A stretch of 64,000 nucleotides of DNA from the NCBI GenBank assembly GCA_051362555.1, contig CM120642.1, positions 16,368,001 through 16,432,000 of the forward strand, read 5' to 3'. Every line of letters begins with the position of its first letter. The first letter of the stretch is position 1. The notes beneath the pieces are model-generated. The model searched no databases. It worked only from the letters and a program-made list of their open reading frames with translations, and was not told where the DNA came from. Source of the stretch: Lingula anatina (Eukaryota; Animalia; Brachiopoda). Shown here in pieces: positions 32,741 to 58,583 of the stretch. The translations under genes were made by a program, and so were the position numbers.

Positions 32741-33600
32741 AAAACAAGGCAGCAAAGCTGTCAAATGTACAGACACAAAACAGAAAATAAAGATGCAAAA
32801 TAGGTCATTTTGTCAATTTTGATTCAATAATAAATAATGCTTATAATAGCACAGTCAGTTAACACTGATTTTTAATCATGCACAACAGGTAACATGCTCA
32901 ATAACAGGAGCAGATCCAGAGATATTTTCTGACAGTATTCCAAAGTATCTTTGTTGATCCATCCTCCACTTTTGATGGTCTTCCAACAGAAAAAAATTGA
33001 TACCAGTCAATGTAAACTTAAATATCTGACCGTCATCTGAAAGACCCAGAAGACGGCCTCAATCCACCCCTGCAATAAGATTACAGTTTCTGGACCATGA
33101 GAATTCAAATTCAGATAACAAAAATCCCAATATTTAAAAAATGTTGACAGTACATAAAATAATATTACATAATGTTTAAAGACATAAAAACCTATGCAAC
33201 TGCTTATTAAATGTGGAAATATAGAAAATCTAAAGAGCTTCAGGTGGATGGGAGTTGAAAATGCCAGTGTTTAGGAAAAAAAATTAAAAAGAAAACACAC
33301 AAAAAAAAAAACAATAAAAAAATTCCAATAAAGCTGCTATTCAAACTTTTAATCTTGCTGTATTACATGATATGAATAACCCCAATGTGTTTGAGGATAA
33401 TAAGGCGCTGTTATTCATCTATAGCATTAATGTTAGCATTACACAAATTTTTTCTTTTGTAAACTTATTTGCAATATTAAACAACATTTACCTGCATAAT
33501 TATCACCAATTCCTAAATATGTGACCCAGTTAAGAGAGCTTAACCTATAGAAAATACAGAAAATGTGCAGAGCCTTAGGCGGATGAGAGTTAAAAGTCAC
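32741..33600 (-). mobile_element. 3'-terminal fragment of the HINE family
   Basis: aaacaaggcagcaaagctgtcaaatgtacagac terminus at 32741. The following ~800 bp is colinear with 50677-51484. Confidence 0.85.
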
Positions 33601-34469
33601 AAATTATAAAGGAAAACACACGTAGGAACTGCAAGTCTTCAAAATGGTTGAATAAGTTTAAATCAGTGAAAAGGGATCCAAAAAATATTTTTTCATTTTA
33701 ATACTTATCATTCATCAGCTTTTGCATTTTCCATCTATTTTATCTCAGCTGCTTATGATAAGTGTTTAAATCATCAATTAATTCTCGTAAAATATAAATA
33801 GTTTAAGTCATGAATAATCCTTAGATATACACCCAATGCATATTTTCAAAGATGCCAGTGTGTTATTGTGATGTTATACAAGTTGTTATTATTTTAACAA
33901 AAGTTAAAAGAAAATGATAAAAAAAACCCCAGACTAAGATATGGGTCCCGTGGCAATCTTCCTTCTACAATTTAAGTGTGAATTACTAGTAACTATGAAA
34001 ACAGGAACTCACAAACAATATTACAATCACCATTTACCGAATCTGTATTAATTATTACTTTCAACCTTAAAACATTTAAGTCAACCATGAAACAATCTAT
34101 AAGAGAATTGAATTGTGTTAATGGTATGGCAACTCCTGAGAACATCTTCAGTTATAATATAATGGCAGTGTTCCAAAACCACGATACATATTAAATACAG
34201 GCTTGCTTAAATCTTAAACAGAAAGGAAGTATTATCAAGTGTTGCACCTGCTCAGCAAAGCTGCAAATTTTATTTTGCAGCATCACAATTTCACTAGCAC
34301 AAATCAGTAATAATTGTTAGTATATTTGTAACATATTTAATATTCGTCATTTGCCTCTAATCATCGCTAAACATTATTTAAATATTACTACACATATTTA
34401 TGATAAATGTATGCATATTTGTAATAACTAAATTTTGTCATTTGCTACGGGAATGGGGGGGGGGGGTCT

Positions 34470-34980
34470 TAAAAATAAAAATTTTGGGCCGCAATTCCCA
34501 CAGCAAATATGAAGGAGTACCAGTAGATAAGGCCGGTGCCATGAAAGTGAGGGTCCGTGTGACAGAAAGTCCGTCCTCCATATAGTTAGGGTTAGTTTGA
34601 CCTAAGTAGGTCAAAATCTAGGGCGAGGCTCACTTGTACAAATGAATGGGAAGCGGACTCTCTGTCATGGGGGACTTTCTGGTACATGTCACCGGTGATG
34701 GCACAGAAATGGGAAAATTCTTGGTTTTGTCTAGTTTTGCTTGCATTATACATTTATATAAAATCTGATTCTCAAAATAAATGCAATCGGCAAGTATTAT
34801 GCTACAGGGATGGGAGTGAGGTGTTCTTAAGAATAAAAAAATTGGGCCTTAATTCCCTCAGCAAATATAAAATAGTGCCAGTAGATAAGGACAATAATGG
34901 CACAAGGATGGAAAAAATCTTGGTTTTGTCTAGTTTTGCTTGCTATATGCATTTATATAAAAAATTGGGCCTCAATTCCC

Positions 34981-35020
<40 letters not shown>

Positions 35021-35070
35021 GTGCCAGTAGATAAGGATAACAATGGCACAGGAATGGGAAAAAAACTAGT
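34470..35070. repeat. Three degenerate direct repeats, the first interrupted by a CCGGTG-ended MITE (34533-34695)
   Basis: ttgggcc.caattccc.cagcaaa...ccagtagataagg...atggcaca.gaatgg.aaa recurs three times. The insert ccggtgccatgaaagt...ttagggttag...actttctggtacatgtcaccgg resembles the 701-925 MITE. Confidence 0.7.
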
Positions 35071-38000
35071 TTTTTTCTCGTTTTACTTGTGTTATACCCC
35101 TGTAGTCAAGAACATATACATTTATACACAATGTACCCCTTCGTTAACATTAAGAGGTGTTGGGTTCTTAAATCTACAGTGGGATTTATTTAAGTAAGAT
35201 AGTTACTTAATTTGACTCAGGAAAGTCTAGGTAACGGCTCGAGTTCCTGGGGCTCCGTAACTTAAAAGCATCGCGTATTGCGAACGGCGATATCACATAG
35301 AGGCTACAGTGTATTACATGGGGCGAGCATGGGCAAGTAATGGAATCGAGACGCTTGCGCTCGGTCGCAATGCGCGCTGCTTTCGAGTTACGGGGCCCGG
35401 GAGAGCAAAGTAACGCAGCACCACAGCTTTGTATCCAAAAACCAAAATTCAACTCATTACCTGGACATCGGCTAGTTTTATGGAAGAAATTGGAGTGACA
35501 GAAATAGTGACGAGATTGTAAAAGTTTAAGTGAGAGGCGAAAGAGGATTATTTCTACTAATGATTAAACAAGCATACATGCGAGTCCATTTAAATTTATT
35601 TGCAAGTCTCGCTTTTTTTTAGCGATCTGTACACGACCACTTTTTTTACAAAAAAAAAAAAAAAAAAAAAAAGAAAATTATAGAATATTTTTTATTCAAC
35701 TATTATGTACAATTTTGAATATTTACAGCTGATTTAAAAAGGACTAATAATCAGTAATGCACTACGTAAACGCAATGAATTATTACATAGCAGTATTATC
35801 AAAAGTTCTAAGATTTTCCACCGTCTTCATCTAGCGTCGGAACGCACACAGTCCGATAATGCAGGTCTTGTGGTCGGAAACTGGTACCAGATGCTCTCGG
35901 GCCGTGGGGAAAAACCCGTCTAAACCCTTCGTGGGGAATGCCGGGAAAGTGCCCACGCCCGGATAATTCGGTCCTTATAACATGACGAAATCGGTTTCTA
36001 TTGGCACGGCGCTGCGTACAGTTCAAGAATCGTCCCGTTTTAGACAGCATTGTGAGATGGAATAACCTTTGTCTTGACTAACTATTCTCTATATATACCC
36101 CGGTACTATACACGAGGTGAAGCATAAAAACTTATTGAAGTAATTCTTACAGAAAAAGGCACTGAAGCCAATAAAAAACTAACAAGAGACATAACAATTA
36201 AACAATCATTTTGACTTTATCTTGGAGAATTAAAACCATAAATAAAGTTAATCATTTTACAACTGCAAGCATCTTTCAAAACTTGATTATAGTTCTCTTT
36301 ATGATAAAATGCAAACAGATTCAAGTAATATGATTATAACTCGGGAATATCAATGATTTCAACTAAACTTTGATATATAATTCGACTTAAAATACCAGGT
36401 TTCTAAAATGTAACTTTGCACTGAAATCGCAACTACCTGCATGATACAAGTACAGAATAAAGCAAGCTTGCTTCAAAATATTTCGGATCTCACATTACAC
36501 TGTATGACGGCCCATGTAAATTTCAATCTGAATTTTTTTGATCCGGAGAAAAGGTGCATATGTGATGAAGTGGATGTATTTGTCAACTATAACACTTGAG
36601 AAAATCTGAATATTAGTAATGTGATCTCTATCTTGAGAGATGACAGCATCTCTCAAGAAGAGCAGACTGTACAAAAAATATAATGAAATATTTTCTCACA
36701 CGTAAAATATTTCATTACAGATTTTGCACAATCTATCAATGTAAAATCTCTTCATGTAAAAGCGTTTACATGAAGTCAGATTTTACAAAGATGTGAGGGT
36801 TTGTTAGTAAGGTTAGTGTGCAGGTTAAGACCTTTTCAAATGCCATACTGACAAACAACTCCACATCATCAAAAGCACAAATTTGAAAAATGACCATCTC
36901 AGATTGAAACAAAACACAGACGACCACAAGTGGTGGGAATGTTTTTGTGAGCAAAAAACTATCTGCATTCAGAATGTGGATAAAGCAACTCTATATTCAA
37001 ATTTATTAATATAATAATTATAGCAACTGTAGAGGTAGACTTTTCCTACAGAAGCACACATCTTATTCAATTGATCTTGTATGGAATGAAGAATTATCTT
37101 GAACCTCAGTTTTCTCTTCTGTTATTGAAATAAAATGGTTCACTGCATAAGGCATAAAATACAAATGAAATTTGATGCAATTTCACCTTGACATGTTTGT
37201 GACCCATGAACCCCAAATATTCTCAGCATCCAAAAGACTGATACATTATTAGACTGTATTCCCACTACATTCAGTACTGTATATTGCCTTCATTACCATT
37301 CCACATTCTTTATATTTGTTTGCAGAACAAGCCGTGTCCTTCAACACCAAAACTCGTGGGATGTCCGAGCATCCATGAAAGTGTCCAAAGGGCTCCTTGC
37401 TAACGCTGCACAGTGTTCAACATCTTGGACATTTGGTCTTGGGTCGACGTTATCTGACATCATGCAGGCGTAATTATTGGAAAACTCCCAATTCGTAGCC
37501 TACAAATGAAATCCAACTTTTACTCAAAAGTATGAAAAGCTATATCGAAAGCTCGCAGTAACTGCAACAAAGAAAGTATATCACTGGTATTTACACACCG
37601 TTAACATTAATGAAAAGGTTGGTTCTTAAAATGATCAGAGCGTTATTTCCAAATGTACAGTGAAATATGCTTCCTTTATTGAAATATATATATTAACTTT
37701 TTAGAGTAAGTAGACAGCAGTCTTCAAAAAATAAATTATTTCAAACATTTGACAAAAAAGTAAGAAAAGATGTTGCTATATTGAATATTGTAATGTTAGC
37801 CTACATGTTAAATTGTTGACTGTCTGTGCTACTTCTAATTCTACTGTTTGTTTACATAGGATATAGTTTTTGATCACTGTCAATAATAAGAAACGCCATT
37901 ATACACCAATAATAATACTTAAAAAATTCAGAACCACTTTTCTTAAGTTGTTGATCCCCAATAACTTACAAAGTTATCTGTATAAAGATCCCTCAATCCT

Positions 38001-38728
38001 GAAGAAGTGTTTCATCTGGAGTTGCAATCTTCATTTTTAGAATCCACCACTTTTGGTAGCCTGCAAATTTAAATTATTACTTCAAAATGTAATAAAAGTC
38101 AACCATTTGTATATGGAATGTGTTTTTAAAGTTTCAGCAGTTTGATGGGAAATAAATATCAAAAGCACTTTTGTCACAAACTTGGAAAAAACATTCAAGC
38201 GAAATATTTTGACATTATATTTTGACATTATATTTTGGGTATTGCACAAATTAGTTTTAACGAAGGAAAAGGAACACTAACAGCATTTAAACGACTCTAC
38301 TCAAAGACAAGTTTAAGTAAAGCCTGAACAATCTATATCCAGCGGGAGGAGTGTACTAGTATTCCATCAAGTGTTTAATTTGTGAAGGATTTATATGGGA
38401 GAGACAAAGAGAAAGTTGAACGTTAGAGTTAAAGAACACGGGAAGGAATAAGAAAGGGTACCCGAAGAGGGAAAAATACACTACAGCCCAAGGTAGCCTT
38501 CTGCTACAACGAACCATCACAAAAAAACATTGATTGGGAGAGTGCCAATATTCTACAAAAAGAAAGTGACTGGAGAACAAGAGGCGTAAAGGGAGGCATA
38601 CAAACCAGGAAAATGCCTAACAATCTGAACAATATAGAGAGATGGAAATAAATACTCACTTCTACGGTGGCCTTTTATTACCACAACCACAGCACTGGAG
38701 GTGGGGGTGGTAGCTGCTAGTATACAAT

Positions 38729-39306
38729 TTCTGGACCAGTGACAACGTCCCGGAGTCACATTGGTGGTGGGTGTTGGGGGCGGTAGCTCCAAGTAATCTG
38801 GACCAGTAACCACGCCCTGGAGTCACATTGGTGGTGGTGGGTGGTGGGGGCGGTAGCTCCAAGTAATCTGGACCAGTGACAACGTCCCGGAGTCACATTG
38901 TTGGTGGTGGGTGTTGGGGGCGGTAGCTCCAGGTAATCTGGACCACTGACCACGCCTCGGAGTCACATTGTTGGTGGTGGGTGGTGGGGGCGGTAGCTCC
39001 AAGTAATCTGGACCACTGACCACGCCTCGGAGTCACATTGTTGGTGGTGGGTGATGGGGGCCGTAGCTCCAAGTAATCTGGACCACTGACCACGCCTCGG
39101 AGTCACATTGTTGGTGGTGGGTGGTGGGGGCGGTAGCTCCAAGTAATCTGGACCACTGACCACGCCCCGGAGTCACATTGGTGGCGGTGGGTGGTGGGGG
39201 CCGTAGCTCCAAGTAATCTGGACCAGTGACCACGCCCCGGAGTCACATTGGTGGTGGTGGGTGGTGGGGGCGGTAGCTCCAAGTAATCTGGACCATTGAC
39301 AACGTC
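38729..39306. repeat. 67-70-bp GC-rich tandem repeat, ~8 copies
   Basis: ggagtcacattg(ttg)gtggtgggtggtgggggcggtagctccaagtaatctggaccactgaccacgcc repeated; the ORF track shows a 70-nt stagger. Confidence 0.97.
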
Positions 39307-40764
39307 CTGCAGAATATTGAGACTGTTGAGGATCTGAAAGGTGACGAATGGCATGTCAAAATATTTTGTATGAATGATAAGGTTTTTCCACATCTGTGAC
39401 AAATTAAAAGAGCTTTTTACCTGTGAAAAATGAGCACTGAATTTGCTAGAGTAAATTGTAAATAGAAAACAAATGCCTGCACCGAGTGACAGGTCCCAAA
39501 CATTCTTAAAACAATTGTCTAAGACCTTGCACAAAATGCTCAGTTTGTTGGAGTTGCACTGATAAAAGATTTGTATTATCTATACAATGAATGACAATCT
39601 AGTTCATTTACCCTTATCCTGCCCCATAACTTACCTTGAATGCTCTCTAATCACAACTATTGAAGGGCTCTTGAAACACTATATGATATAGCTGACATGG
39701 CTTTCTCCATTTTAGCCTTGTTAACCTTGTTAAAAGGGACCGTCATCAGGACAGGCGCTCGCCAATGCTATCTGCCTCAACTACAAAATAAAAAATTATA
39801 AGTCAAAAGTTTCCCTCTTTACTTCTCCCACCCAAATCCAATCTACTAACCATAAATATCTTAATCCTAGGAGTGGGTCATGGGTAAAAGACATTGCCTT
39901 CTGAATGTGAGCTGTCAAATTAATGTGGCTAACGGTTTTTAGTTTTTCAAGGTATGAAAAATCACTTAAGTGTTTTGTTTTCCCCCAAAAACATGAGTGA
40001 TATGTACCTTTTAAGGCTTGATAGGTTTCCATCTCTGTGAAACGCCATATGCTTCTGATGCTCCCCCATGCAGCCCCCTAACATAGAGACCATGGCAGGA
40101 CTCAACCATGCACCAAGGATTGAATGTGACCCTCTTCTTGCACCTCTTTCAAAAAAGCGGGACTTTATCAAGAATTGCCCTAATTGAGTTCTGTAAATAG
40201 AAAGGAAAATTTGATTAGTTTTCAAAAATTGTATATCAAAAGCAGTCTGCAGCCAGAAAAATTGTTGGAATCGGTAGATTTTCAGAATGTGTCAATTTGG
40301 TGACATGGCTGTTAGATTTTTTCTATAAGTATGAAAAAGAGCTTTTGATTTATTTTAAATGTAACTGTTACATCATGATTCAAGAAAAATGTCAAGGTCT
40401 TGTTAATACAAATATTAATGCAATCCAGTCTAGTCCTATTGAACTTTGTATTCGAACCAGTGAATCAAGATTCAGACATCTATATCTAGTTTTTAGGAAA
40501 GAAGGTGGACTGAATGGCCAGTAGGGTGAAAAGTTTATGGCACAGACTGCTGCTGAAAAATTAATTTTAGTGTATTGTTCTCGCCAGTAACACGGGTTAC
40601 CTTGCAGGTTTTTCCGCCTCTGAGACACCATATGCTTCAGACGCTTCTCCAATGCAGCCTCTTCAACAGACCGTGGCAGGACTCACTGGCACCAAGGATT
40701 GAGGGATGTATCGGAAGTGTGCACGTGGCCCTCTTCTCCTTGCAGTTGCCATGAAACATTGGAC

Positions 40765-41138
40765 AGGACTCGCTGGACGCTTCCTAGTGCAGCCACCTCG
40801 TAGACAGACCATGGCAGGACTCGCTGGACGCTTCCTAGTGCAGCCACCTCGTAGACGGACCATGGCAGGACTCGCTGGACGCTTCCCCAGTGCAGCCACC
40901 TCGTAGACGGACCATGGCAGGGCTCGCTGGACGCTTCCCCAGTGCAGCCACCTCGTAGACGGACCATGGCAGGACTCGCTGGACGCTTCCCAAGTGCAGC
41001 CACCTCGCAGATAGACCATGGCACGACTCGCCGGACACTTCCTTAATGCAGCCACCTCGTAGACAGGCCATGACAGGACTCGCTGGACGCTTCCCCAGTG
41101 CCGCCACCTCGTAGAGAGACCATGGCAGGACTCGCTGG
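40765..41138. repeat. 52-bp GC-rich tandem repeat, ~7 copies
   Basis: c(a/c)gccacctc at 40790, 40841, 40893, 40945, 40997, 41049 and 41101. Confidence 0.97.
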
Positions 41139-41196
41139 CTCCAAGGGATGGTCGAAGTAGCTTAAGTGTAGATGTGGGGTGTCTCCTTGCAGTTGT

Positions 41197-42108
41197 GTCC
41201 TGTAAACAGAAATAAAAACGAGATTAGATTTCTTTCATTTCTCAAACTCCCCTTCCAAAAAGAAAAAAAGATTACATACCTTAAGGAGTGTAGTCGAAGT
41301 CCCACAGGTGGTGCCCATCATCTTCTACGTCCTGTAAACAAAAAATAAAAATGAGATTAGATTTCTTTCATTTCTCAAACCCCCCTTCCAAAAAGAAAAA
41401 AGATTACATACCTTAAGGAGTGTAGTCGAAGTCCCACAGGTGGCGCCCATCATCTTCTATGTCCTGTAAACAGAAATAAAAACGAGATTAGATTTCTTTC
41501 ATTTCTCAAACCCCCCTTCCAAAAAGAAAAAAAGATTACATACCTTAAGGAGTGTAGTCGAAGTCCCACAGGTGGTGCCCATCATCTTCTATGTCCTGTA
41601 AACAGAAATAAAAACGAGATTAGATTTCTTTCATTTCTCAAACTCCCCTTCCAAAAAGAAAAAAGATTACATACCTTAAGGAGTGTAGTCGAAGTCCCAC
41701 AGGTGGCGCCCATCATCTTCTATGTCCTGTAAACAGAAATAAAAACGAGATTAGATTTCTTTCATTTCTCAAACCCCCCTTCCAAAAAGAAAAAAAGATT
41801 ACATACCTTAAGGAGTGTAGTCGAAGTCCCACAGGTGGCGCCCATCATCTTCTATGTCCTGTAAACAGAAATAAAAACGAGATTAGATTTCTTTCATTTC
41901 TCAAACCCCCCTTCCAAAAAGAAAAAAAGATTACATACCTTAAGGAGTGTAGTCGAAGTCCCACAGGTGGCGCCCATCATCTTCTATGTCCTGTTAACAG
42001 AAATAAAAATGAGATTAGATTTCTTTCATTTCTCAAACCCCCCTTCCAAAAAGAAAAAAAGATTACATACCTTAAGGAGTGTAGTCGAAGTCCCACAGGT
42101 GGCGCCCA
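41197..42108. repeat. 132-bp tandem repeat x7; each unit is an ~80-nt intron plus a 52-nt exon on the - strand
   Basis: gtcctgt at 41197, 41329, 41461, 41593, 41724, 41856 and 41988. On the - strand each unit reads AG|GTATGT...CTAAT...tttttatttctgtttacAG|GAC. Confidence 0.95.
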
Positions 42109-45100
42109 CCAGTTTGCAGTCTGCTTCCTGGACCTGTAATAAAAAGAAACCTGGAAAGCATGGGAATATGCAATGACACTACGACTCCAGCCCACGACAG
42201 CAAAAAGGTGAAGTATCCTGCGAAGATGACCGAGCGACGATTCCTCGTGGGGAGAAGCGAAGATTTTAGCTGGCCAGCTAAGAGCAACGCCGAATCCACC
42301 GTCTAGACGTCTGCGTGTGCAGGGAACAATATGTCGAAGAGCGATGCGTTGACGTAGGATGAGTAGAAGATTCGGAGAAATGGGAGTCGACTCCCGTGTC
42401 CTTTGTGCTTGATACAGGGCGCAGCACATGGCATCCGTCCTGTTGCTCTAGATCTGTCCGCTGTTGAGTGAACGCACTTTTAAAATTTTGCGCTTTTATA
42501 CCTTTGTTGACGTATAGTCACATGTTGGCGTTCTTGTTGTCACCAATGGTCAACTTGTTCAAAGGGGATGGCCTTTGATAGTGATGCGCAAAGTTGGTAA
42601 TAATATCTTATCAACATATACATTTTCTTTTATATTTTATATTTTGATTATTCTGCCTGTCAGTTTGTTTATAATAAGAGTAATAAGTTCTAAGCAATGT
42701 CTGTGAAATGTGCAGGCAAATTTGATGAAAATTTCTGAGCAACATACCTTCTCCCTAAAATTTTTATAGGTACGATGTCCGTTAAGCTGGTAGCTGTGAA
42801 CTTCTCGCAGGCTACTTTAGTGTGCGTGTATTTGAACACTGATCCAAAATGTGGATAATGTAATTTGGCGTAGGGTGACTGCATTTTTGAGGCAGCCTGA
42901 GGGAGTATGGTTGTTCTGATTGTAGTGAATTGTAGAGAGACAATTGGAAGTACACTGGACTTAGCATGTTCAGTCACCCAAGTACTCTGAAACACATTTT
43001 GTAATCAGCTGACTTGTTATTCTGAAAAATGAAAAAACAAATTATATTGATTTACAAAACTGGAAGATAGAAGCAGTGGATCATATTACTTATGCCAGGC
43101 AGAAGAAACGACTGAATGTATATTTTTATATTCAAAACGTCTACTGATTTAGGTAATAATTAACAACTGACGTCTCCCTTCATGGCGTCGGGTTATCAGT
43201 ACTCCCACACCAGTAACATGAGTTATGAGTTGAGCAGAAACAGAAAAAGATTTTTTATAAAGTTAATGCAAGTACACTGTATATGTGTAGGCCCATTTAT
43301 CTTTTTTTATATTACTAAACGTAAGAATTGTTTGTCCAAGTGAAACTTTACTTACAACAGCCTAGCAACTAAATCTGACGTTTTAACGTCTCCGAAAATA
43401 ACTAGAATTTTTTGAATAACGCAATAATGCGGCCACCTTCGAGGTGTCGCCCGGTTTTTAAAAATTGAAAAAAGAAACTTTTCGGGGCGTCTTTTGTCGC
43501 GGGTCATTATTTTCAGTTGTTTGATTTTTTTGTAATATTTTAGCCATTGATAGAATCTTTAATTCAGTTACATCCACGATTAGCTAGACGAAATGGTGAC
43601 AGGGAAAAGTCAAATTTTTTAAACGGCAAAAACTGCATTCTCTTAGAAAGCAATTAGCAAACATTCATTACCAGGCACTGTGAAAAATTCAACAAAATTG
43701 TCAAAAATAAACGTGCATGTAGTAATAGCTATTTAAAGTAGTCTAATTTTTGTTAGTATTAAAAACGTGTAAATATTATCCACATAGGATATTTTTAGAG
43801 CCTTCGATATTTAAAATATTTAAACTTCCCATACTTTGAGGCATGCATGAGTCGGAAAATGTTTGCATAATTTCATAAAAAAACTAGAATTATCTCTTTA
43901 TGTGACCACAGTTTACTCATGTGCCTTACATCATTCCCTTAAACCCTTTCCCAATATCGATTTCAGATATTTTTGACACATTTTGTCTTCATCTGAATCA
44001 CGTAAACGTTATCAAGTGTCATAAGGCGTACATTATGAAAATATTTAGGTCTTGGAACGTGATTTGATGACTTTTTTAAATGCATATATATACAATTATA
44101 AATTTATAATTAAGTTATTTAATATCAAATTATAAGTTCTGACCGAGTTTTAAAATTTATTTTAGGAGGGGTAAAAAAACCCAACTCCATCTAATATATA
44201 TTGGATACATCCGTAGGCTTATGTCCTTAGAACTAGGCGTACAAAATGTGTCTTCTAGCTAAAGTTATTATTATGGTGTATGTGTAATTAAAAAAAAAAC
44301 TACGTAAGAGTGACAAAAGGTCATGTGTTTCGAATGCACCCCCACTCTCCGATCAGACATTACTTTTGTATAATTCACAGTCCATCTTCGTTGTAGTTTG
44401 TGACTTTACATCATTTCTTAGTGAAGCGGTGTTGTCCTCAATTTAACTTAAATGTCCAAATTACTAAGAAGAAACCACTTGCAAGAATTATAAGGCTTTT
44501 TATACTGCTAGGTCTATAGACGTGATACACACGATATTTTGCAACCCCACAAAATCTGTTTCTTAAAATTTTGGTTCCACCACAAAGCTTAGCACTATCA
44601 TTCTTTTTTGCTTTATTGATATATTTTCAGTACATAAATAACCATTGTCTGTTGCCCAATTTTGCACAAAATTAAGATAATCCCCAAAACCTCATTAATT
44701 GTGTTTCCTCCATCCCAAAAAATATTAAAAATTTCTCCTCATAATTTAGTAGTGCACTGGCATCTACACAGTACATAAATGTATCATTATAATAACATCT
44801 TGTTCTTACTGATAACATAATTAGCTTAATTCCATAACAATTCTAAAATGTTAATAACAATGAAAATTCAAAGTAGATGGCAAGATTCTTATTGTGCTGA
44901 TAAAGATAAAATATGTAAATTCAATACTGATTAGGTACTGTATACTGGCTCATTGAAAAAAGGGAACCGTTTCACAAAAAAATTAAGCTTAGACTGCTAA
45001 ATCTGGATAGCCAACTATACAAAGCCAACTTTGCGATATTGTCTTACAACTACAATTTTTTAAGAACGATTGGTCCACAGTTGATGAGTAGAATATACAT

Positions 45101-46353
45101 AAATGGGCTACTGACACCACTGCAAGTAAAAGACTTGCCAAGACAATCAAAATGTAAATCAAAGGAAAGTGAAAAGAAAGTAAAAAGACTGGAAAAAATG
45201 AGGCAAAATTGATAACTTGGTTAATGAGCGAACAATACTCTAGTTTTGATTAAATCAGAACTTTTCTTGCACCTATTTTTATTTTTGCCATTTTGTAAGT
45301 GAAAAAAGGGGAATAGGGGATTGGTGTAGTGAAAGCCCAACCTTAACCTTTGGATGCTATTCTCATTAAACATATGCATAAAAGACAAAATTTAGACCAC
45401 AAATAGATTCATGCAATCTACCAACCTTTTTTACAGTAAGTCATTGCAACTTATCAGTTATTTCTGACCTAGGCTATCTGTAAGATTCTTACAACTGTGA
45501 AGTGCAACTTAGCCAGCTAAGTCTTTATAGGCTCAGATTTTAGACTACAAACCAACTTCAAACATTTAGTAAAGCAAGTGCAAGGAATAGTTAGTTTGAA
45601 GGCTCTGCCTCCCCATAGGGTGAGAACAAACACACTCACACTGTATGATACATTACAGAAAACATTGGTTAAAAATATACTCTGGAATTTTACATTTTCA
45701 CTAGTATAGAATCAATTTGATTTCTAAAACTGACTTATTATAAAAATACTCCTGTCAATTTAAAACTTTTTCATAAAGCATATCTGAAATATACTGATAA
45801 AATGTTATTAAAAATATTAAAATTTGATATTCACAGATAAAATAGGCTCAAGTCAAAATGATTAAGACAATTATTGAAGCATTATTCAAACCCCAATTTT
45901 GATTATTTTCATACAATTAGTGATTCACAAGTTCTTTAACAGAGTTGCACCTAATCTGACTACATGATATCTATCAAAATCTCTCTAAAATCAAGTGACA
46001 AAAAATGCCCACAGTTTCAAGCACCATAAAATATGGCTTAAGTAAGTAATATCCTCAATTGTTTCATAATAAACGTCATGTCACTTGAATGTACCTTTCT
46101 CCAGAAAAAAAGATGAACTTGCAAGGTTTGATAAGTCTGCGTTTACAGGTAGATGTCATAGTTTAATATACATGAGGCAGCTTTATATCGTGGTCAACAA
46201 TATTATATTATATCAGTTTCTCTAGCCTCCATGTCTTATTCGTCATAATATTTTGATTTTCAAATTCAGGGTCCCCTAGTAAAAGATCTTGCATTTCCTC
46301 TTGATCACAGAAGAATCTGAGTTGAGAATACAGTTGAGAATACAGAGTTGAAA

Positions 46354-46459
46354 TTAGGCCTCTCCTCTCCACTCGGGGTCCTCTTGCAACTGAACCTGAC
46401 TGACATCCATGGTTACATCTTGAAAAATAATATATTCCCAAAAAAGTTTAAATGGTGCA

Positions 46460-46506
<47 letters not shown>

Positions 46507-48265
46507 TAAAATCAATAAATCTTGGACACATTACTTGTGGTACGTCTGAATAACACGACAGACAAGAAGAAAATAGTTGCTCTTGAAAATGGACTTTAAG
46601 TAATGAAAATGCAAGATGACAGCTAGTAGATAGTACATGTGCATGCAATTTATTTGAAATTCTGACTTTTCAGTCCTAATGATTTAGATTATTTATAGCC
46701 AATAATCTGAGAAAATAAAATATTCAACAGAGAAATTGATTGCAATAAATCCTGCTCGTACCTGACTGCTTAATATTCACTGCAGCAAACCTCTCTACGA
46801 CATCGTCGAGCTGATCAGTTGGGTCATCGTAATCACACGTGTACGCTTTATTCTCGAGGCAGTACTTAAATAAACTACACCAAAGAGAAGTTGAAAATAA
46901 AGAAAGAATTGCCTACTTTCTTTTGTCTTTCTGTATGGACTTTCATTCACAATAAAAGAAAGAATTGCCTAGTAGACACTATTTTGTCTGTCAGTTTGGA
47001 GTTTAATTTACATGTTTTTTAACTTTCCTTTTTTTTTTTCTATTTTTTTTCATTTAACAGTCTGTCTGAACTAAAACATGATATCTTTCTCTTTTTAATC
47101 TTTCTATCCTCTTTGTTTTTTTTTTTTGCTTTTTTTGTCAGTCTGTCTGAACAAACATTAAAAATTTAATTTATGAACTTTATTAAATCCTTAACATTTC
47201 TTTTTTTGTTGGTTTGTCTGTCTGTCTGAACAAGAGTTCTTAGAAACAATGAGATTAAATAAAGATTAAATAAAGGAAAAAAAATTTTGAACCTAACATG
47301 GCTGATTTGTGTTTGGTTTGAAAAAGTCTTATAATTTGATTGAACTTTTTTTGCTTACTGCTCAAATAAATTAAAATAATTCACTTCACCTGTTCCAATG
47401 TTCATCTTGCGAAAGAAGAAACGGATTCCCTACAACAATCAATAGGGCCTTTGCTCTTGTGATCGACACATTAAACCTCTGAAAAAAAAAATTAATCCCA
47501 CATGTAACTGTATGTGCGGGTGAACACTGAAGACAGTATAGTCTGAGACTAACTGTTCATATCTCTTCTGTGAATTCCGCATCACATGGCATAGTCTCTG
47601 CAGTGCCATAGTGGAAAGAAATGGTGATGAAAATAGTATGGACTATAGCTGTTTAAATAACCTTACATTTCAAAATATGTGTGTGCACATCCATATGTAC
47701 AAAGTCTTATGAATTATGTGTTCACGCATATACACATGCCACAGCACAATCATGGTAATGACACTATCTTTTCAATGGGCAAAAATTATCAAACTTTCAA
47801 ATGTATACCTTTATAAACACATAAAGTATATAGTATTAGTGGTACTCTTACTGCACAGATTAGAACTATAGAGTAGCTTACTTTTTTATTTTGTTGTGAC
47901 CATCCAAGAGGAATTGGGTAGGAGTATTAAAATTTTAAAAATTAATGGCCTAAAAAAATACCGCATCTGTAAAGTTCACGATTTCCCCTGTATTCATCAT
48001 GGAATAAGCTCTGTCATATTTCCCTCACTTGTTTTCTGTAGGGGGAAATAATTCCAATTTCATTCTGCAAGACTCGGATGCCTCTGGCCTCCAGTAGCAG
48101 GATGTGATCTGTAGTTTTTGAGGAGTTTTGTGAGGAGGAATGGGTTGTAATGGCCTTGACGTTGGTACAGTACATCTTGATCGTCGTCATCTGAGCCAGG
48201 ACTCGAACCACCCCTCTTCTTGTACACATCACAGTAGGTCATGTATCTTTCTAAAAGTGAGAGTC
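46354..48265 (-). pseudogene. MOV10: 5'-truncated, internally deleted MOV10 RNA helicase fragment (unprocessed)
   Basis: Exon 48029-48265 reads GLSLLERYMT...LLTKLLKNYRSHPA, fused out of frame to EIGIISPYRKQ. Then 47390-47478 (RFNVSITRAKALLIVVGNPFLLSQDEHW), 46762-46874 (LFKYCLENKAYT...) and 46354-46418 (...QEDPEWRGEA*, the MOV10-type tail). No upstream exons were seen before the HINE cluster and the IK 3' end. Confidence 0.88.
46461..46505. repeat. (TAA)n microsatellite; others include (CA)n 6330-6361, (GT)n 9011-9046, (CA)n 23250-23283 and (GA)n 58547-58582
   Basis: Directly visible simple repeats. Confidence 0.97.
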
Positions 48266-49020
48266 CTGTAAGACATTAAAATGATGAGACATTTCATATA
48301 CATGTATAAATATATAAATGAAGTTATTCTTTATCAAAGAAACTAAATAACTATGAGGTTCAAAAGGTTTTAATTTCACCATTATATGTACAAAAGAGAT
48401 GAAAGAGACATTTTGTCAATGCTTAAGTACAAAATCTCTACTACCACATGTAAAAGTATTTCAGTGTTTGCAATTTTACCAGAGCTTATAGAACTACCAA
48501 AAAAAAAAAAAAAAAAAAAAAATGACCCTTGTCAAAACCTAGTCCTAGTCAAAAGAAAGACTTTCTTTTGTCAAATTAAAAATTATTGAAGGAATAATTC
48601 TGGGCACATCCATAGCAGTAAAAATGTTTCATTAATTGCATTACTTTTTATTTTACTTAAATCTTAGAAGCAGAAATCACTGGTCAATAAAAAGCTTTTA
48701 GAATAAGACCTACATGTATATAATTTTACCAGACTCTCAAACACCTTTGTAAATATTATAGTTAATCATAGTACTTTTGTCCACAATTTTCAACTTCACT
48801 TTTCTTTTAGTCATAGTCTTATTTCATTTTTATTTAAGCCCGAGGTAGTAATGTTACTTCCCCTTTTAATGCATTTCATAACACATACACTCACACACAC
48901 TGGCAGATTAAAACTTTACTATTACTCATATTATCATTTTTATTATAATGGCTGTTGGGGGCATATTATTATAATTAAATATATTAAAAACTATTATAAT
49001 TATAATTATATATATTAAAA

Positions 49021-52000
49021 ACTTATTTGCAATATAAAACAAAATTTACCTGCATAATTATCACTGCTTCCTTATTATTAATCCAGCAGAGAGCTTAACC
49101 TTTGGGAGTTTACAGGAAAATATCAACAAGTGTGCTTTATGTAATCTCATTTAATGGCCTATTAATTAGGCAAATGACTTTATAACTTTATAACTTAGCC
49201 TAGTGAGACCTAAGGGAAATTTACAGACTGACCCTCTCAAAGGTCTTCAGGCCCATAAGTCACACCCTTAAGAAATGCACAAAACAATAATGCACAAAAT
49301 AGGAGACTATCAATTCTGATACAATAATACATTATGTTTAACTGCACAGTCAACATCAAATGTTTTAAAATTATGCACAACAGGTAACACCGACGAAAGT
49401 AAAAGCATAAGGCTTCAGGCCCATCAGAGTTCAAGTTTATACTTAGAAAGTGCCAAAATGAGAAAAATGAAAATTTCACAAAAAATGCATAAATTTAATA
49501 AAAGTGATAATCTAATAGAGCTGGTTTTCTAATATGAGCTGTATGTCAATCCTAAGAATCATTCTTGTAAGACTAGTTGAAAAAATAGAAAGTAACAGTT
49601 TTCTTTCTATAATGTTAATGGTGGCAGTGTACAAAAGAGGTTTCTTGTCAATTTTGATGCAACATTACATAATGATTAACTATATAAATACCACCAATTT
49701 TTAAATATCTACTATTAAAAACATGGACATTAAAAAAAGGTGATTACCAAGGGAGCTCTAAGTCCCACATTGAAAATTCCAGTATGTGAAAGATAAAAAT
49801 TTTCACAAAAAACCTCTATAACTTCCAGAAAATTAACTAATGAGACAGATTTTCCAACTGAAGCTGTATTTCAGTCCTATGTTTCTTTCCTTTAAGTGTA
49901 AAAAGAGCAAGTGACATGGTTTTCCTTTCACGGTCACTAAGAAGGCAGTGCCTAAAATAGGGTTTTGTTCAATTTTGATGCAATATTACATAATGCTTAA
50001 CAGCATAATAACCATCAGTTTTTTAATGATAAAATAAAACTATCATGGATATTCACAAAATGTGCCTAGCCCATAGAGTTCAGAAACACTTTGAAAATCC
50101 CAAAATCTAAACAAGAGAAACTGTATTAAAAAGAGTTTATTTCCATTTTCAATACCTTTTTTACATGAAAAAAAATAATCGATTTACTGTCATTTTTATG
50201 TGATCAATTAAAATATGTTGTCAAAGGAAAAATATCAATAGAACAAATTTAAATGTCCAACTTGCTCCATTCTGAGATTCTAAACTTAGTGAATGATTGA
50301 ATCTGACGAACTTCAATGATATGAGTTCCCTTCCATTTTTGATACTTTATTACACAATGCACAATAAAAGGTGTACTGTCATTTTTATATAATCAACTAA
50401 CAATATTTTTAAGAAGCAGAAATGTCAAAACAACACTTTTACATATCTAATTTGTTCCATATTGAGACTGTTAACATGCCTAAGAATTAAATCTGAAGAA
50501 AAGCCACTTATATGCAAAAAGGCTAATAACTTCATCAAAACTTAACTGATCAAGCTTATTTTCAAACTTGATCTGTATATTAGTCAGACTGATCACTCCT
50601 GTAAGTTTCAAGACAAAAGGCTGATTGGTTTTCCTTAAAATGTGTTATCAGTGTTGCATATATGCTGAATAATGGAAAACAAGGCAGCAAAGCTGTCAAA
50701 TGTGCAGACAAAAAACAGAAAATAAAGATACAAAATACATGTAGGTCATTTTGTCAATTTTGATGCAATAATAAATAATGCTTATAATAACACAGTCAGT
50801 TAACACTGAATTTTAATCATGCACAACAGGTAACATGCTCAATAACAGGAGCAGATCCAGAGGTATTTTCTGACAGTATTCCAAATTATATTTGTTGATC
50901 CATCCTCCACTTTTGATGGTCTTCCAACAGAAAAAAAAATTGATAGCAGTCAATGTAAACTTTAAAATCTGACCATCATCTAAAAGACCCAGAAGACGGC
51001 CTCAATCCACCCCTGCAATAAGATTATAGTTTCTGGACCATGAGAGTTCAAATTCACATAATGAAAATCCCAATATTTGTTGACAGTGCATAAAATAATA
51101 TTACATATTGTTTAAAGACATATAAACCTATGCAACTGCTTATGTGGAAATACAGAAAATCTGAAGAGCTTCAGGTGGATGGGAGTTGAAAATGCCAGTG
51201 TTTAGAAAAAAAATTAAAAAGAAAACACAACAAAAAAAAAAAAAAAAGAAAAAAAATTCCAATAAAGCTGCTATTCAAACTTTTAATCTTGCTGTATTAA
51301 CATGATATGAACAATCCCAATGTGTTTGAGGATAATAAGGCACTGTTATCCATCTAAAGCATTAATGTTGGCATTACACAATTTTTTTCTTTTGTAAACT
51401 TATTTGCAATATTAAACAACATTTACCTGCATAATTATCACCAATTCCTAATTATGTGACACAGTTAAGAGAGCTTAACCTATAGGACTTGAATGGGAAA
51501 TCTCAACGTGTGTTTTATGTAATCTTATTTAATGGGCACTTGAAAATCAATTAGGCAAGTAATTTTATAGCTCTGAATTTAGCTAGTGATTATCCCAAGG
51601 GACAATTACCACCATCCATAAACAGTAGCCCCATATACTGTAACACTCCATAGAGCTGCATTGCTTCCAAAACAGAAAACAATCACACTGATTTCCAACA
51701 CAAGCTACACTTCAGTCCTATGAAACTTTTCAGTAAGTTAGAATATCATAAGTAAAATGGTTTTTCCTTAATGGTCATCCCAGCAGCGATGTCCAAAAAA
51801 GTTTTTTTTTCATCTTTTATGCAATTTAACATAATGCTTAACAGCACAATGGCCATCAATTTTTAATAATAAAGTAAATGTATCATAGCTATTCAAAAGA
51901 TGTGACTAGCAATGGTATTCAAGCCAATTGAAGTTCAAAGACTAAGTCACACCTTGAAAATGTCCATATGTGAAAATTTTAATTGTAACAAAAAACTATA

Positions 52001-55000
52001 TAATTTCCAAGAAAGTTAACCAATATAACAGGTTTTCCAACTGAAGCTATAATTTAGTGCTATGCTACATTTCTGTAAGTTTGAGAAGAGTGAGTGACTT
52101 GGTTTTCCTTTAATGGTCACTATGGAGGCATTGTCTAAAATGGGGTTGTCTTCAATTTTGATGCAATATTACATTATGCTTAACAGCATAATGACCATCA
52201 ATTTTTAATAATAAAATAAAAGTATCATGGATATTCAGAAAATTTGATATGGAAAGGTCTTCAGGTCCATGGAAGTTCAGAGTCACAACTTCAAAATGCC
52301 AAAATGTACACAAGAGATAACTGTACTGAAATTAATTTCTTTCAACTTTCAACACTTTTTTTACATATATCAAAATAATCAATTTACTGTCGTTTTTAAA
52401 TGATCACTTAAGAAAGTTGTTGACATAGGAAAAATATCAATAGAACAATTTTAAATGTCCAATTTGTTCCATTCTGAGATTCTGAACATGGTGAATGATT
52501 GAATCTGACAAACTGTAAAGATATGAGTTTATTTCCATTTTTGATACTTTATTACACAATGCACAATAACAGGTTTACCATCATTTTTATATAATCAACT
52601 AACAATATTGTTAAGATGCAGAAAATGTCAAAAGAACACCTTTACATTACTAATTAGTTCACAAATGTGATTGTTAACATGGCTAAGAATTAAATCCGAG
52701 GAAAAAAGACTTATATACAAAAAAAGGCACAATTTCACCAAAACTGAACCGATCAAGCTTATTTTCGAACCTCATCTGTATTTTAGTAAATCTGATCACC
52801 CCTGTGAATTTCAAGATGATTGGCCAATTGATTTTCCTTGAAATGTGTTATCGGTGTTGCACATATGCTGAAATAGTGAAAAAACAGCATAACTTCCATA
52901 AAAATGTCCCGATCAGGCTGATTTTCGAACCTGACCTGCGTATTATGAATATTCATCATTTCAGTAACTTATAAGCCAAAAAGTAAAACAATTTTTCGCT
53001 TATCGTGTTATCGGTGTTGCATTTATGCTGAGAAAAATGAAACAAGGCAGCAAAGCTGTCAAATGTACAGACAAAAAACAGAAAAAAAAAGATGCAAAAT
53101 AGGTCATTTTGTCAATTTTGATGCAATAATAAATGCTTATAATAGCACAGTCAGTCAACGCTGATTTTTAATCTTGCACAACAGGTAACATGGTCAATAA
53201 CAGGAGCAGATCCAGAGATATTTTCTGACAGTATTCCAAAGTATCTTTGTTGATCCATCTTCCATTTTGATGGTCTTCCAACAGAAACTCGTTAATATAA
53301 ACTTTAAAATCTGACTGTCTTCCAGGAGACCCAGAAGATGGTCTCATTCCACCCCTTCAATAAGATTACAGTTTCAGGACCATGAGAGTTAAAATTCACA
53401 TGATAAAAGTCCCAATATATGAAAAATGATGACAATGCATAAAATAATATTACAGCATGTTTAAAGACATAAATACCAATACAACTGCTTATGTGGAAAT
53501 ACTGAAAATGTGCATGCAGAGCCTCAGGTGGATGGGAGTTAAAAATCACATCTTAAAAATGCCAGTGTTGGAGAAAAAATTAAAAAGAAAACAACAAAAA
53601 TATAATTCCAATGAATCTGCTATTCACTGCTTCCTTATTATGGACACTATGTTATCTAGCAGAGAGCTTAACCTTTGGGAGTTTACAGGGAAATATCAAC
53701 AAGTGTGCTTTATGAAATTTCATTTAATGGCCGCTTAATTAGGCAAATTAGTTTATAGCACTGAAATTAGCCAAGTGAATACCCAAGGGGAATTTACAGA
53801 CTGACCACACAAATTTGTCTATTAAAGGTCTTCAGGCCCATAAGTCACACCTTAAGAAAAGCAGAAAACAATAATGCACAAAATAAAACAGGAGACTGCC
53901 AATTCTGATGCAATAATACATTATGTTTAACTGCACAGCCAACATCAAATTTTAATTATGCACAACAGGTAACACTGATGAAAGTAAAATGCTGAAAATT
54001 TTGAAAAAAAAACATCATAACTTCCCTAAAATTGGCCGGATTATGCTGAATTTCGAACTTGACCTGCGTATTATGAATATTTATCAGTTCTGTAAGTTTC
54101 AAGCCAAAAAGTAAAACAGTATTTCACTTATCGTGTTATCGGTGCTACATAAATGCTGAAAAAAGTGAAACAAGACAGCACTGCTCTGAAATGGGTTTGT
54201 TTCCATTTTTAAGACTTTTTTAACATAAAACAAAATAAACAGTTTACTGCCATTTTTATATGACCAACTAAGAAAATTGATGAGATGGAAAAAATATCAA
54301 TAAGACAGTGTTATATGTCCAATTTCCTCCATTATGAGATTCTGAACATAGTGGATGATTGAATCTGACAAACTGCAATAATATATGTTTATTTCCATTT
54401 TTGACACTTTATTACACAATACATGATAACAAGTTTACCATCATTTTTACAAAATCAACTAACAATGTTGTAAAGATGCAGGAAATGCCAAACAAACACA
54501 TTTAAGTATCTTATTAGTTCAATAATGAGACTGTTAACATGCCTAAGAATTGAATGTGAGGAAATGTGAAAAAACAGCATAACTTCTAAAATAATGGACC
54601 GATTATGCTGATTTTCCAACTCAACCTGCGTTTTAGTAAGATTTGCCACTCCTGTGAGTATAATGACAATTGGCCTATCTGTTTTTCTTATATTGTGTTA
54701 TCAGTGTTGCATATATGCTGAAAAAAAGTGAAAAAATAGCCTAAATTCACTAAAAATGACCCAATCATGCTGATTTTCAAACTTGACCTGCGTATTATAA
54801 ATATTCATCAGTTCTGTAAGTTTCAAGCCAAAGGGTAAAACAGCTTTTCATTTATTGTGCTATCGGTGCTGCATATATGCTGAAAAAAGAGAAAAAATAG
54901 CCTAAATTCACTAAAAATCACCTAATCACGCTGATTTTCGAACTTGACCTGCATATTATGAATATTCATCAGTTCTGTAAGTTTCAAGCCAAAAGGTAAA

Positions 55001-58000
55001 ATGGTTTTTTTACTTATCGTGTTATCGGTGATGCCTATATGCTGAAAAAAGTGAAAAACAGCATAAATTCCCTATAAGTGACCCGATCATGCTGATTTTC
55101 GAACTTGACCTGCGTATTATGAATATTTATCAGTTCTGTAAGTTTCAAGCCAAAAGAAAAAACAGTTTTCCACTTATCCTGTTATCGGTAAAAGTGCACG
55201 GCGACGACGGCAACGACGGCGACGGCGACGACAGACGCAGATGACGGCTATATGTACAGACACATCTGTGTCTGTACATAAAAATAGCATAACTTCCACA
55301 AATATGGCCCGATCATGCTGATTTTCAAACTTGACCTGCGTATTATGAATATTCATCAGTTTTGTAAGTTTCAAGCCAAAAAGTAAAATGGTTTTCCACT
55401 TATCATGTTATCGGTGCTGCATATATGCTGAAAAAAGTGAAAAAACAGCATAACTTCCACAAATATGGCCCGATCATGCTGATATTCGAACTTGACCTGT
55501 GTATTAAGCATATTCATCGGTTCAACACAAAAGGTAATACGGTTTTTCACTTATCGTGTTATCGGTGTTGCATTTATGCTGAGAAAAATGAAAAAAAAGC
55601 ATAACTTCCACAAATATGGCCCGATCATGCTGATTTTCAACTTGACCTGCGTATTATGAATATTCATCAGTTTTGTAAGTTTCAAGCCAAAAAGTAAAAT
55701 GGTTTTCCACTTATTGTGTTATCGGTGCTGCATATATGCTGAAAAAAGTGAAAAAACAGCATAACTTCCCTACAAGTGACCCGATCATGCTGCTTTTCAA
55801 ACTTGACCTGCGTATTATAAATTTTTATTAATTCTGTAAGTTTCAAGCTGAAATGAAAAACAGTTTTCCACTTATCGTGTTATCGGTAAAAGTGCACGGC
55901 AACGACGGCGATGGCGACGACGGCGACGACAGACGCAGGTGATGGCTATATGTACAGACACATCTGTGTCTGTACATAAAAACAGCATAACTTTAAATTT
56001 GTAAAAATAGTCCAATCAAGCCAATTTTCGAACTTGACCTAAGTATTATGAATATTCATCAGTTCTGTAAGTTTCAAGCCAAAAGGTAAAATGGTTTTCC
56101 ACTTATCGTGTTATCAGTGCTGCATATATGCTGAGAAAATGCAGAAAATGGTTCATTTTGTTAATTTTGATGCAATAATAAATCATGCCTACAATAGCAC
56201 TGTCAATCAACACTGAATTTTAATCATGCACAACAGGTGACATCGTCAATAGCAGGAGCGGATCCAGAGATATTTTCTGACAGTATTCCAAATTATCTTT
56301 GTTGATCCATCCTACATTTTTGATGGTCTTCCAACAGAAAAAAACAGACACCCATCAATATGAACTTTAAAATCTGAAAGACCCAGAAGACGGCCTCAAT
56401 CCACCCCTGCAATAAGATTACAGTTTCAGGACCAAATTCACATAATGAAAATCCCAATATTTGAATAATGATGACAATGCATAAAATAATATTACATAAT
56501 GTTTAAAGACATAAAAACCAATGCAACTGTTTATGTGGAAATACAGAGAATGTGAAGAGCTTCAGGTGGATGGGAGCTGAAAATGCCAGTGTTTGAATAA
56601 TAAATTAAAAAGAAAACACAACAAAAATATCCCATTAAAGCTGCTATTTAAACTTTTAATCTTGCTGTAATAACATGATATGAATAACCCCAATGTGTTT
56701 GAGGATAATAAGGCACTGTTATTCAAATATATTTTTTTTTCTTTTGTTAACTCATTTGCAATACTAAACAACATTTACCTGCATAATTATCACAGATTCC
56801 TAATTATGTGACACAGTTAAGAGAGCTTAACCTATGGGACTTTACTGGGAAATCTCAACGTGTGTTATATGTAATCTTATTTAATGGGCACTTGGAAATT
56901 AATTAGGCAAATGATTTTATAGCTCTTAATTTAGCTTGTGACTACCCCAAGGGACAATTACCACCATCCATAAACAGTAGCCCCATATAGCACTCTATAG
57001 AGCTGCATTGCTTCCAGAACAGAAAACAATCACTCTGATTTTCCAACACAAACTGCACGTCAGTCTTACAAAACTTTTCAGTAAGTTTGAGTATCATAAG
57101 TAACATGGTTTTTCCTTAATGGTCATTCCGGCAGCCATTTCCAAAATAGGGTTTTCTTCAACTTTTATGCAATATAACATAATGACCATCAATTTTTAAT
57201 AATAAAATAAAAGTATCATGGATATACAGAAAATGTGACATGGAAAGGTCTTCAAGGCCATGGAAGTTCAGAGTCACACTTTCAAAATGCCAAAATGTAC
57301 CTGTATACAAGAGATAACTGTATTGAATTGATTTTCTTCCATTTTCAACACCTTTTTTTCATATAACAAAGTAATCAATTTACTGTCATTTTTAAATGAA
57401 CTACTGAGAAAATTGTTGACATAGGAAAAATATCAATAGAACAATTTTAAATGTCCAGTTTGCTCCATTCTGAGATTCTGAACATGGTGAATGATTGAAT
57501 TTGACAAACTGTAAAGATATGAGTTTATTATTATTTCTATTTTTTGACACTTTATTACACAATTACAGGTTTACCATCTTTTTTATATAATCAACTAACA
57601 ATATTGTTAAGATGCAGAAAATGTCAAAAGAACACCTTTACATATCTAATTAGTTCACAGATGAGATTGTTAACATGCCTAAGAATTAAATCAAAGGAAA
57701 AAACACTTATATACAAAAAAGGCATAACTTCACCAGAACTGAACCAATAGAGCTAATTTTCGAACTCCATCTGTATTTCAGTAAGACTGATCACCCCTGT
57801 AAATTTCAAGACAATTGGCCAATTGATTTTCCTTGAAATGCGTTATCGGTATTGCATACATGCTAAAAAAAGTAAAAAAAAAACAGCATAACTTCCATAA
57901 AATTGGTCCAATCACGCTGATTTTCAAACTTGACCTGTGTATTATGAATAGTCATCAGTTCTGTAAGTTTCAAGCCAAAAGGTAAAACGGTTTTTCACTT

Positions 58001-58414
58001 ATCGTGTTATCAGTGTTGCATATATGCTTAAAAAAAATGAAAAAAGAGCATAACTTCCATAAAAATGCCCCGATCATGCTGATTTTCGAACTTGACCTGC
58101 GTATTATGTATATTCATTAGTTCCATAAGTTTCAAGCCAAAAGGTAAAACGGTTTTTCACTTATCGTGTTATCGGTGTTGCATATATGCTGAAAAAAGTG
58201 AAAAAACAGCATAACTTCCATATAGATGGCCATATCATGCTGATTTTCGAACTTGACCTGCATATTATGAAAGCTCATCAGTTCTGTAAGTTTCAAGCCA
58301 AAAGGTAAAACGGTTTTTCACTTATCATGTTATCGGTGGTCAAAGTGCACGGCGACGACGACAGACGCAGGTGATGGCTATATGTACAGACACATCTGTG
58401 TCTGTACATAAAAA
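49021..58414 (-). mobile_element. Cluster of nested HINE elements of the same family
   Basis: 3' termini at 50677 and 53040; 5' termini (tatgtacagacacatctgtgtctgtacataaaaa plus (gacggc)n) ending at 55284, 55982 and 58414. Many ~161-bp monomers; reverse complement of 24429-28947. Confidence 0.88.

Positions 58415-58545: not shown

Positions 58546-58583
<38 letters not shown>

Follow-up and report, generated by a model that had tools for sequence, protein, structure and literature searches.

The stretch of DNA analysed here, hereafter the window, comprises 64,000 nucleotides of the brachiopod Lingula anatina (assembly GCA_051362555.1, contig CM120642.1, positions 16,368,001 to 16,432,000 of the forward strand). 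It contains a minus-strand insertion of 25,674 bp (window positions 32741-58414) in a T-run target, bounded by termini of HINEs, the non-autonomous Helentrons, and carrying a 15.4-kb multi-copy cargo (33611-49020) in which a broken piece of the MOV10 gene and a predicted repeat-RNA unit lie. An earlier sequence-only reading had placed six HINE termini on the minus strand, and all of them are there: the 5' termini at 58414, 55982 and 55284 have no mismatch to a 36-nt reference, the 3' termini at 32741, 50677 and 53040 have 0-1 mismatch to a 33-nt reference, and the sole further termini at the same match level belong to a plus-strand copy (24429-28947). The 5' termini fold into a 13-bp stem (-11.8 kcal/mol, z -7.1, 0/200 shuffles), the predicted 3' hairpin has a weak 4-bp stem that does not stand out from shuffled sequence (z -1.4, 23/200 shuffles), and the last 20 nt are identical in all four 3' termini. 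Moreover, the ends at 58414 and 32741 have a perfect 12-bp subterminal inverted repeat (subTIR) in common, T-runs border both outer ends, and a GTCGCC-type microsatellite followed by 161-162-bp arrays lies downstream of the 5' termini.

HINEs are recognised by subterminal inverted repeats of 11-15 bp at both ends, and the ends found here are of this T-run and subTIR type, lacking the 5'-TC...CTRR-3' termini and A-T target of canonical Helitrons (HLE1). HINE/DINE-1 elements and the oyster Cg_HINE are built in the same way, with a 5' subTIR bearing an inverted repeat, a microsatellite, central tandem repeats of ~160 bp, a 3' subTIR with a hairpin (here weak), a T-run target and a tendency to cluster (PMC4067079, PMC7492417). 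However, the Lingula element differs from HINE/DINE-1 elements in its size of 20-26 kb and its 15 kb of host-derived cargo, whereas the cargo described for Cg_HINE consists of tandem repeats (PMC7492417). None of the 126 cargo frames of at least 45 aa matches a Pfam family of transposition proteins (Rep, helicase-of-Helitron or endonuclease), and no long open reading frame (ORF) is found in 49-58.4 kb. The ends at 32741 and 58414 are thus of the HINE (HLE2) type, and the element encodes no transposase.

The check that the sequence-only reading had proposed, a search for the empty site, was run on public reads. From 21 runs listed, three DNA runs kept as contigs (X3, X7 and X10) and a stranded poly(A) run (X12, with ~6 in 100 of its reads) were compared over window positions 29000-38700 and 42115-61500, where copy number and empty site were judged; the contigs considered are the 24 longest per region, of many thousands, the joints are the best supported, and a junction was counted as bridged only with at least 31 letters on each side. 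In X10, letters 43-822 of a contig of 3188 letters (depth 49.7) align to 31946-32744, and letters 1157-3188 of a contig of the same length, depth and strand align to 58781-60991. Between the aligned pieces lie 334 letters, against 366 window bases of right flank (58415-58780, within which an AG microsatellite lies), so that the whole 25.7 kb is absent there. The left edge of this empty site is exact at the A-run (32744) before the HINE 3' end, with a T-run target and no other duplication on this resolved side, and the right edge is fixed to ~370 bp. In its flanks X10 departs from the window by ~7-10%, which makes it a diverged allele, or a diverged lineage that bears the same species name. Contigs of X3 and X7 cross over from the unique left flank to the HINE 3' end and reach 32766, which agrees with a filled site.

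Depth separates the cargo sharply from its surroundings. All eight listed cargo contigs of X3 have depths of 690-3464 vs 66-165 in eight flank contigs (9-44x the flank median), and all six of X7 have 1597-2435 vs 40-79 in ten flank contigs (25-38x), whereas the eight of X10 have 24-207 vs 38-50 in the flank (0.5-5x); these ratios are to be read as orders of magnitude and halved if the flank contigs represent single alleles. The 3' HINE scrap described below ends 60 bp before the point, 33672, at which the high depth sets in, and this depth extends to at least 47644. Over lengths of 254-900 bp, 0-7 letters separate the X3 and X7 cargo contigs from the window, with 22 gap letters in addition in one contig of X3, and the X10 cargo contigs are ~5-9% diverged. 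Since the X3 and X7 cargo is near-identical to the window, amplification was recent, and the cargo is a young multi-copy family. The MOV10 part amounts to roughly 5-20 copies per haploid genome, as an order of magnitude, and its dosage differs several-fold between runs.

These data bear on two other explanations of the locus. On the right the insertion is followed by the IK/RED gene, and on the left lie an intronless NHL-repeat ORF of 326 codons (30806-31786, minus strand; RNA depth 0 in X12), a guanylate-binding protein (GBP) gene (20922-23895, minus strand; Pfam GBP and GBP_C) and an intronless DXD glycosyltransferase frame of 384 codons (18681-19835, minus strand). The presence of other immune-type genes nearby (GBP, NHL-repeat), together with the fact that X10 is a single diverged run, would suit a cargo that is ancestral here, a decayed MOV10 duplicate beside IK that was lost by deletion in X10 with the HINEs as bystanders. 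Nevertheless, the HINE 3' terminus coincides exactly with the break, the copies of the cargo are near-identical at 9-44x depth, and the interval from 58414 to IK is too small to hold the 5' part of MOV10; ancestral cargo is already largely refuted and very improbable. An assembly artefact, in which collapsed repeats fused a multi-copy block into the locus, would fit the repetitive interior and the fact that no listed contig bridges a junction with 31 letters on each side, but X3 and X7 contigs pass from the unique left flank into the HINE, the X10 contig orders both flanks correctly, and both outer termini are intact and properly oriented, which leaves this explanation only a very slight chance. 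As side observations on the right flank, X7 has both an identical allele and an allele ~7-10% diverged in the IK introns (60076-61268), which suggests that haplotypes have diverged very deeply, that the run is a pool or that cryptic lineages exist, and a further high-depth repeat lies within an IK intron at 60878-61500.

The host gene within the cargo can be traced to its source. An exon at 48063-48275 shares 95% identity with Lingula anatina MOV-10, whose intact gene product (P0001, 1112 aa) is encoded elsewhere. The captured piece (44894-49020, minus strand) comprises an upstream intron, four GT-AG exons and the 3' untranslated region (UTR), spans residues 813-1112 of P0001 with its introns kept, and lies on the same strand as the HINE, starting in an intron immediately after a truncated HINE body; RNA pile-ups at 46007 and 44894 point to the end of the UTR. 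The first exon (48029-48265) carries residues 813-869 fused out of frame to 942-968, and it is followed by exons for residues ~1023-1052 (47390-47478, before which 969-1022 are absent), ~1053-1091 (46762-46874) and 1092-1112 plus the stop (46354-46418), all on the minus strand. Two deletions, of residues 870-941 and ~969-1022, thus leave no intact frame, as the sequence-only reading had said in describing a multiply deleted, intron-retaining MOV10 fragment; the first of them, within an exon, seems to have occurred at an apparent 4-nt microhomology. The exons are 95-97% identical to P0001, apart from one at 88% where the alignment enters the intron. A Lingula Mov10l1-like model is only 53% identical to the captured region, so the piece derives from MOV10 proper, and it was captured at the DNA level, with the parent intact elsewhere. 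Near-identical annotated short Lingula MOV10 copies are absent among the best 120 of 1569 matches, a result that is uninformative. Moreover, at 48027 a total of 226 RNA reads splice out of the window into code for the next P0001 residues, an exon missing here, so that the MOV10 RNA seen over the piece stems at least largely from the intact gene.

The second main part of the cargo is a predicted multi-exon repeat-RNA unit (36985-42500, minus strand) with a TATA box at 42500, canonical splice sites and an AATAAA at 37007. Its predicted exons include a 70-bp tandem array of 8.3 copies (38730-39304) and a 52-bp array of 7.2 copies (40764-41138), which has diverged relatives at two other Lingula loci, and a 132-bp array of ~7 copies (41196-42108), each made of a 52-nt exon and a ~80-nt GT-AG intron, all three on the minus strand. 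Every reading frame of the 52-nt exon is interrupted by a stop codon. Rfam gives no match in 32-59 kb; besides the AAA_12 domain of MOV10, Pfam gives only weak matches on repeats or short frames in the cargo; and of ten phmmer matches, two are real (Lingula uncharacterised models) and eight, to low-complexity or repeat sequence, were dropped. Two Lingula gene models at other loci match the unit at 66-73% with frames switching, which points to an older, probably non-coding family, and from its sequence the unit is likely non-coding. A protein-coding unit had been tried and was rejected, as frames opening with an ATG never exceed 192 codons in the predicted splice products with 0-6 repeat exons. 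Over 42115-42761, and through most of 35.8-38.7 kb (within the unit, 37100-38700), poly(A) reads strongly favour a minus-strand transcript; the unit is therefore transcribed from some copy, and the reads may stem from any copy. Its splicing was not seen among the joints listed.

Some smaller features accompany the unit. Opposite-strand RNA reads at 42762-43408 (7.6 vs 1.7) suggest a divergent transcript from the 42.5-kb promoter, and an exon-like stretch is found on the minus strand at 42748-43021. A small unit running from a TATA box to an AATAAA (35696-36100, minus strand) has an 80-codon ORF without a family match and is transcribed from some copy (X12 depth 33 vs 1.6 by mate strand). The cargo also contains two small repeats resembling miniature inverted-repeat transposable elements, one palindromic (34534-34694), with very high depth and an opposite-strand joint, the other at 35250-35398.

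Within the element, part of the HINE sequence is younger than the rest. A block of 5,306 bp (50677-55982, minus strand) is a later nested HINE insertion and itself contains another HINE (53040-55284, minus strand) with an internal junction at 54168, where a variant terminus-like motif lies; both inner pairs are inserted in the T-run of a 161-bp unit. The ends at 55284 and 53040 group with the plus-strand copy 24429-28947, with 95% identity for the 5' end and 93% for the 3' body. This copy is a complete HINE of 4.5 kb that separates the GBP gene from the NHL-repeat ORF, and its interior contains a tandem duplication of ~1.4 kb (88.5%) as well as the motif known from 54168, which occurs there twice. 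Contigs joining 50677 to 55978 occur at depths like those of the cargo in X3 (depth 2397, two contigs) and X7 (depth 1350, two contigs), with short sides of only 28 and 25 letters, so a form without the nested 5,306 bp exists; without this block the insertion measures 20,368 bp. Lineage concordance and this joint agree with the sequence-only reading that the two inner pairs are nested insertions, and favour nesting over a re-pairing of 55284 with the variant end at 54168 and of 58414 with 50677, with 32741 as an orphan, which was dropped. Over 54408-55701 there are plentiful strand-biased HINE-like poly(A) reads (470-560 vs 12-20), in which all genomic copies are summed.

The outer ends are of mixed origin. 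At the left, the 3' piece (32741-33550, minus strand), with its subTIR and predicted hairpin, belongs to a lineage called B (95% to the 50677 copy) and is followed by a minus-strand scrap of a second lineage, C (33552-33610; 80% to 28434-28487 and 53497-53559), which is probably the element's original 3' body. At the right, directly upstream of the MOV10 intron, lies a 3'-truncated body (49021-50676, minus strand) that is C-like near its break and is the most diverged HINE copy of the window (69-83% mid-body). Beyond the nested block, a diverged 161-bp unit (55983-56139, minus strand) continues into this body, and fused to it at 56139 is a nearly full-length lineage B copy (56140-58414, minus strand), which contributes the 5' hairpin and subTIR and has no 3' terminus of its own. 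The sequence-only reading saw one HINE split around the cargo. The body does break off at 49021, and the overlap with 33461-33546 exists, but over 101 columns the 32741 piece matches the 49021 body at only 80% vs 95% for the 50677 copy, the closest matches of the 49021 body there are at 94-96% (50 columns) with the 53040 and 28947 copies, and 32741-33550 duplicates sequence already at 56145-56835; a single split HINE therefore fails, and the outer ends are a composite of different HINE copies. On these alignments they read as a mosaic, with lineage B outside and C-like pieces adjoining the cargo. Right where the 32741 piece breaks off on its 5' side lies an internal hairpin (33529-33546, z -3.2); in element coordinates the break at 49021 is ~70 bp away from it, and the hairpin is a possible breakage hot spot. 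The nearness of the breaks at 33550 and 49021 in these coordinates (~5-9% chance under a naive model) was not used as evidence.

Such a mosaic could also result from a stepwise pile-up, in which a multi-copy core (the 49021 body, the cargo and the 33552 scrap), or the repeat-RNA unit alone, was mobile or duplicated and separate local insertions and deletions added the outer B pieces, so that the composite never moved as such. The division between B pieces outside and C-like pieces at the cargo would be expected from this, other contigs pass 33552 into natural C-type sequence (joints 33207->33552 in X3, X7 and X10 and 18 RNA reads, with a loose end at 33552), the 58414-type copy normally ends in its own 3' terminus (joint 53077->56136 in other contigs), HINEs clearly target one another here, and cargo depth is uneven. 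However, the single empty site removes everything at once, the core is flanked by HINE on both sides even so, and no other terminal repeat surrounds the repeat unit: a separate element with terminal inverted repeats was sought there and rejected, as the longest exact inverted match is 12 nt vs 11-14 in 30 shuffles. We hold a pile-up to be rather unlikely.

The explanation that we favour, and regard as probable, is that this polymorphic 25.7-kb Helentron-ended insertion, with its multi-copy cargo and broken MOV10 piece, belongs to a family of giant HINEs that a rolling-circle transposase encoded elsewhere in the genome would move. Several points weigh against it. The empty site comes from one run that is ~7-10% diverged, its two pieces are paired by length, depth and strand only, and its right edge is unfixed (334 vs 366 letters); the filled left junction of X3 and X7 has 22 HINE-specific letters, short of the 31-letter rule. 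Contig depth, by the tool's own warning, is no copy number, and in X3 it is uneven along the cargo, from 9-16x (MOV10 and 33.9-34.3 kb) to 27-44x (repeat unit); since depth over the repeat unit is 2-4 times that over the MOV10 part, the family has variants, and its parts do not always travel together. In addition, none of the listed contigs, which are short, spans the cargo and both ends, this locus is the one copy seen whole, and among the best-supported joints listed none displays the junction at 49021 or at 58414 in another copy. Accordingly, of the giant cargo-carrying non-autonomous Helentron proposed from the sequence, the single empty site, the multi-copy cargo, the DNA-level MOV10 capture and the lack of a transposase stand, and movement of the exact 25.7-kb composite as one unit is what we infer. 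Because of the known biology of the family and the absent transposase, movement would have been driven in trans by a Helentron Rep/Hel protein.

The layout, with a 5' end, a body without a terminator, a gene's downstream half that points the same way and the 3' end of another copy, is as predicted by end bypass or composite transposition (PMC6431247, PMC4224331, PMC4067079), which would be the mode of capture. A HINE in a MOV10 intron may have lost its 3' terminator at the break now seen at 49021, whereupon replication would have read on through the last MOV10 exons and the UTR until another HINE, lying downstream, halted it with its 3' end. Deletions would afterwards have trimmed the MOV10 piece, the repeat-RNA unit may be a passenger of greater age that brought a promoter of its own, the family would have amplified recently in the lineage of X3 and X7, and 5.3 kb of ordinary HINEs would later have inserted into the 161-bp array of the element.

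Gene capture by Helitrons is a known phenomenon. The gene-capturing Helitrons of bats, maize and fungi likewise carry intron-bearing gene fragments at many copies (PMC4224331, PMC6431247), and the composite ends of the bat HelibatN539 also derive from two elements (PMC4224331). Bat elements measure 123-5,503 bp, and the capturing Helitrons of fungi and maize reach 14 and 39 kb, respectively (PMC4224331, PMC6431247); however, these are described as Helitrons, whereas the Lingula element has Helentron (HLE2) ends and T-T targeting. The HLE2 elements with captured domains of the HELIANO survey have the same ends, T-T insertion and stable captured sequence, but the domains there lie in autonomous elements, in contrast to the non-autonomous Lingula case with its broken fragment and non-coding unit; the word Lingula does not occur in the main text of that survey, and its supplements may list Lingula elements (PMC11417382). 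Drosophila telomeric retrotransposons with fragments of nxf2, piwi or aub also carry a near-identical piece of a host gene that restrains mobile DNA and make antisense PIWI-interacting RNAs (piRNAs) against those genes (PMC7785250, PMC13534243). In those elements the antisense piRNAs have been measured, whereas the Lingula element is a DNA transposon with the fragment in sense orientation. Captures in maize are reported to cause cross-silencing (bioRxiv 10.1101/777037). In the literature consulted, no such element was found described for Brachiopoda, and no paper was found that brings Helitron capture together with MOV10.

MOV10 acts on RNA in restricting retrotransposons and RNA viruses and is thus no obvious enemy of a rolling-circle element. 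By analogy with TART-nxf2, a young, expanding family of ~20-kb Helentrons, which bears the near-identical MOV10 piece together with a promoter and a repeat RNA of the family's own, could conceivably produce antisense small RNAs from that piece and dampen MOV10 with them as a counter-defence, but this is unlikely. The only hint of it is a faint antisense poly(A) depth over the MOV10 exons (3.4 and 2.1 vs 19 and 37 in sense; 3 of 22 reads at 48236), compared with 0-0.2 in the MOV10 UTR bins and three IK bins, and the bins with these reads also contain other repeats. Chance capture is more likely than counter-defence, and the MOV10 piece is most likely a chance passenger.

The locus thus holds a real, polymorphic, cargo-carrying, HINE-bounded insertion of unusual size that belongs to a recently amplified family. 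Capture of host sequence by HINEs was predicted in 2014 (PMC4067079, section 15), and the insertion provides a concrete, large and recently amplified case of it with an empty site. It represents 25-kb presence/absence variation beside a housekeeping gene and probably a Helentron able to move ~20 kb of non-coding and host DNA, and it permits a direct test of whether a DNA transposon with a copied restriction-factor gene turns small RNAs on that gene.

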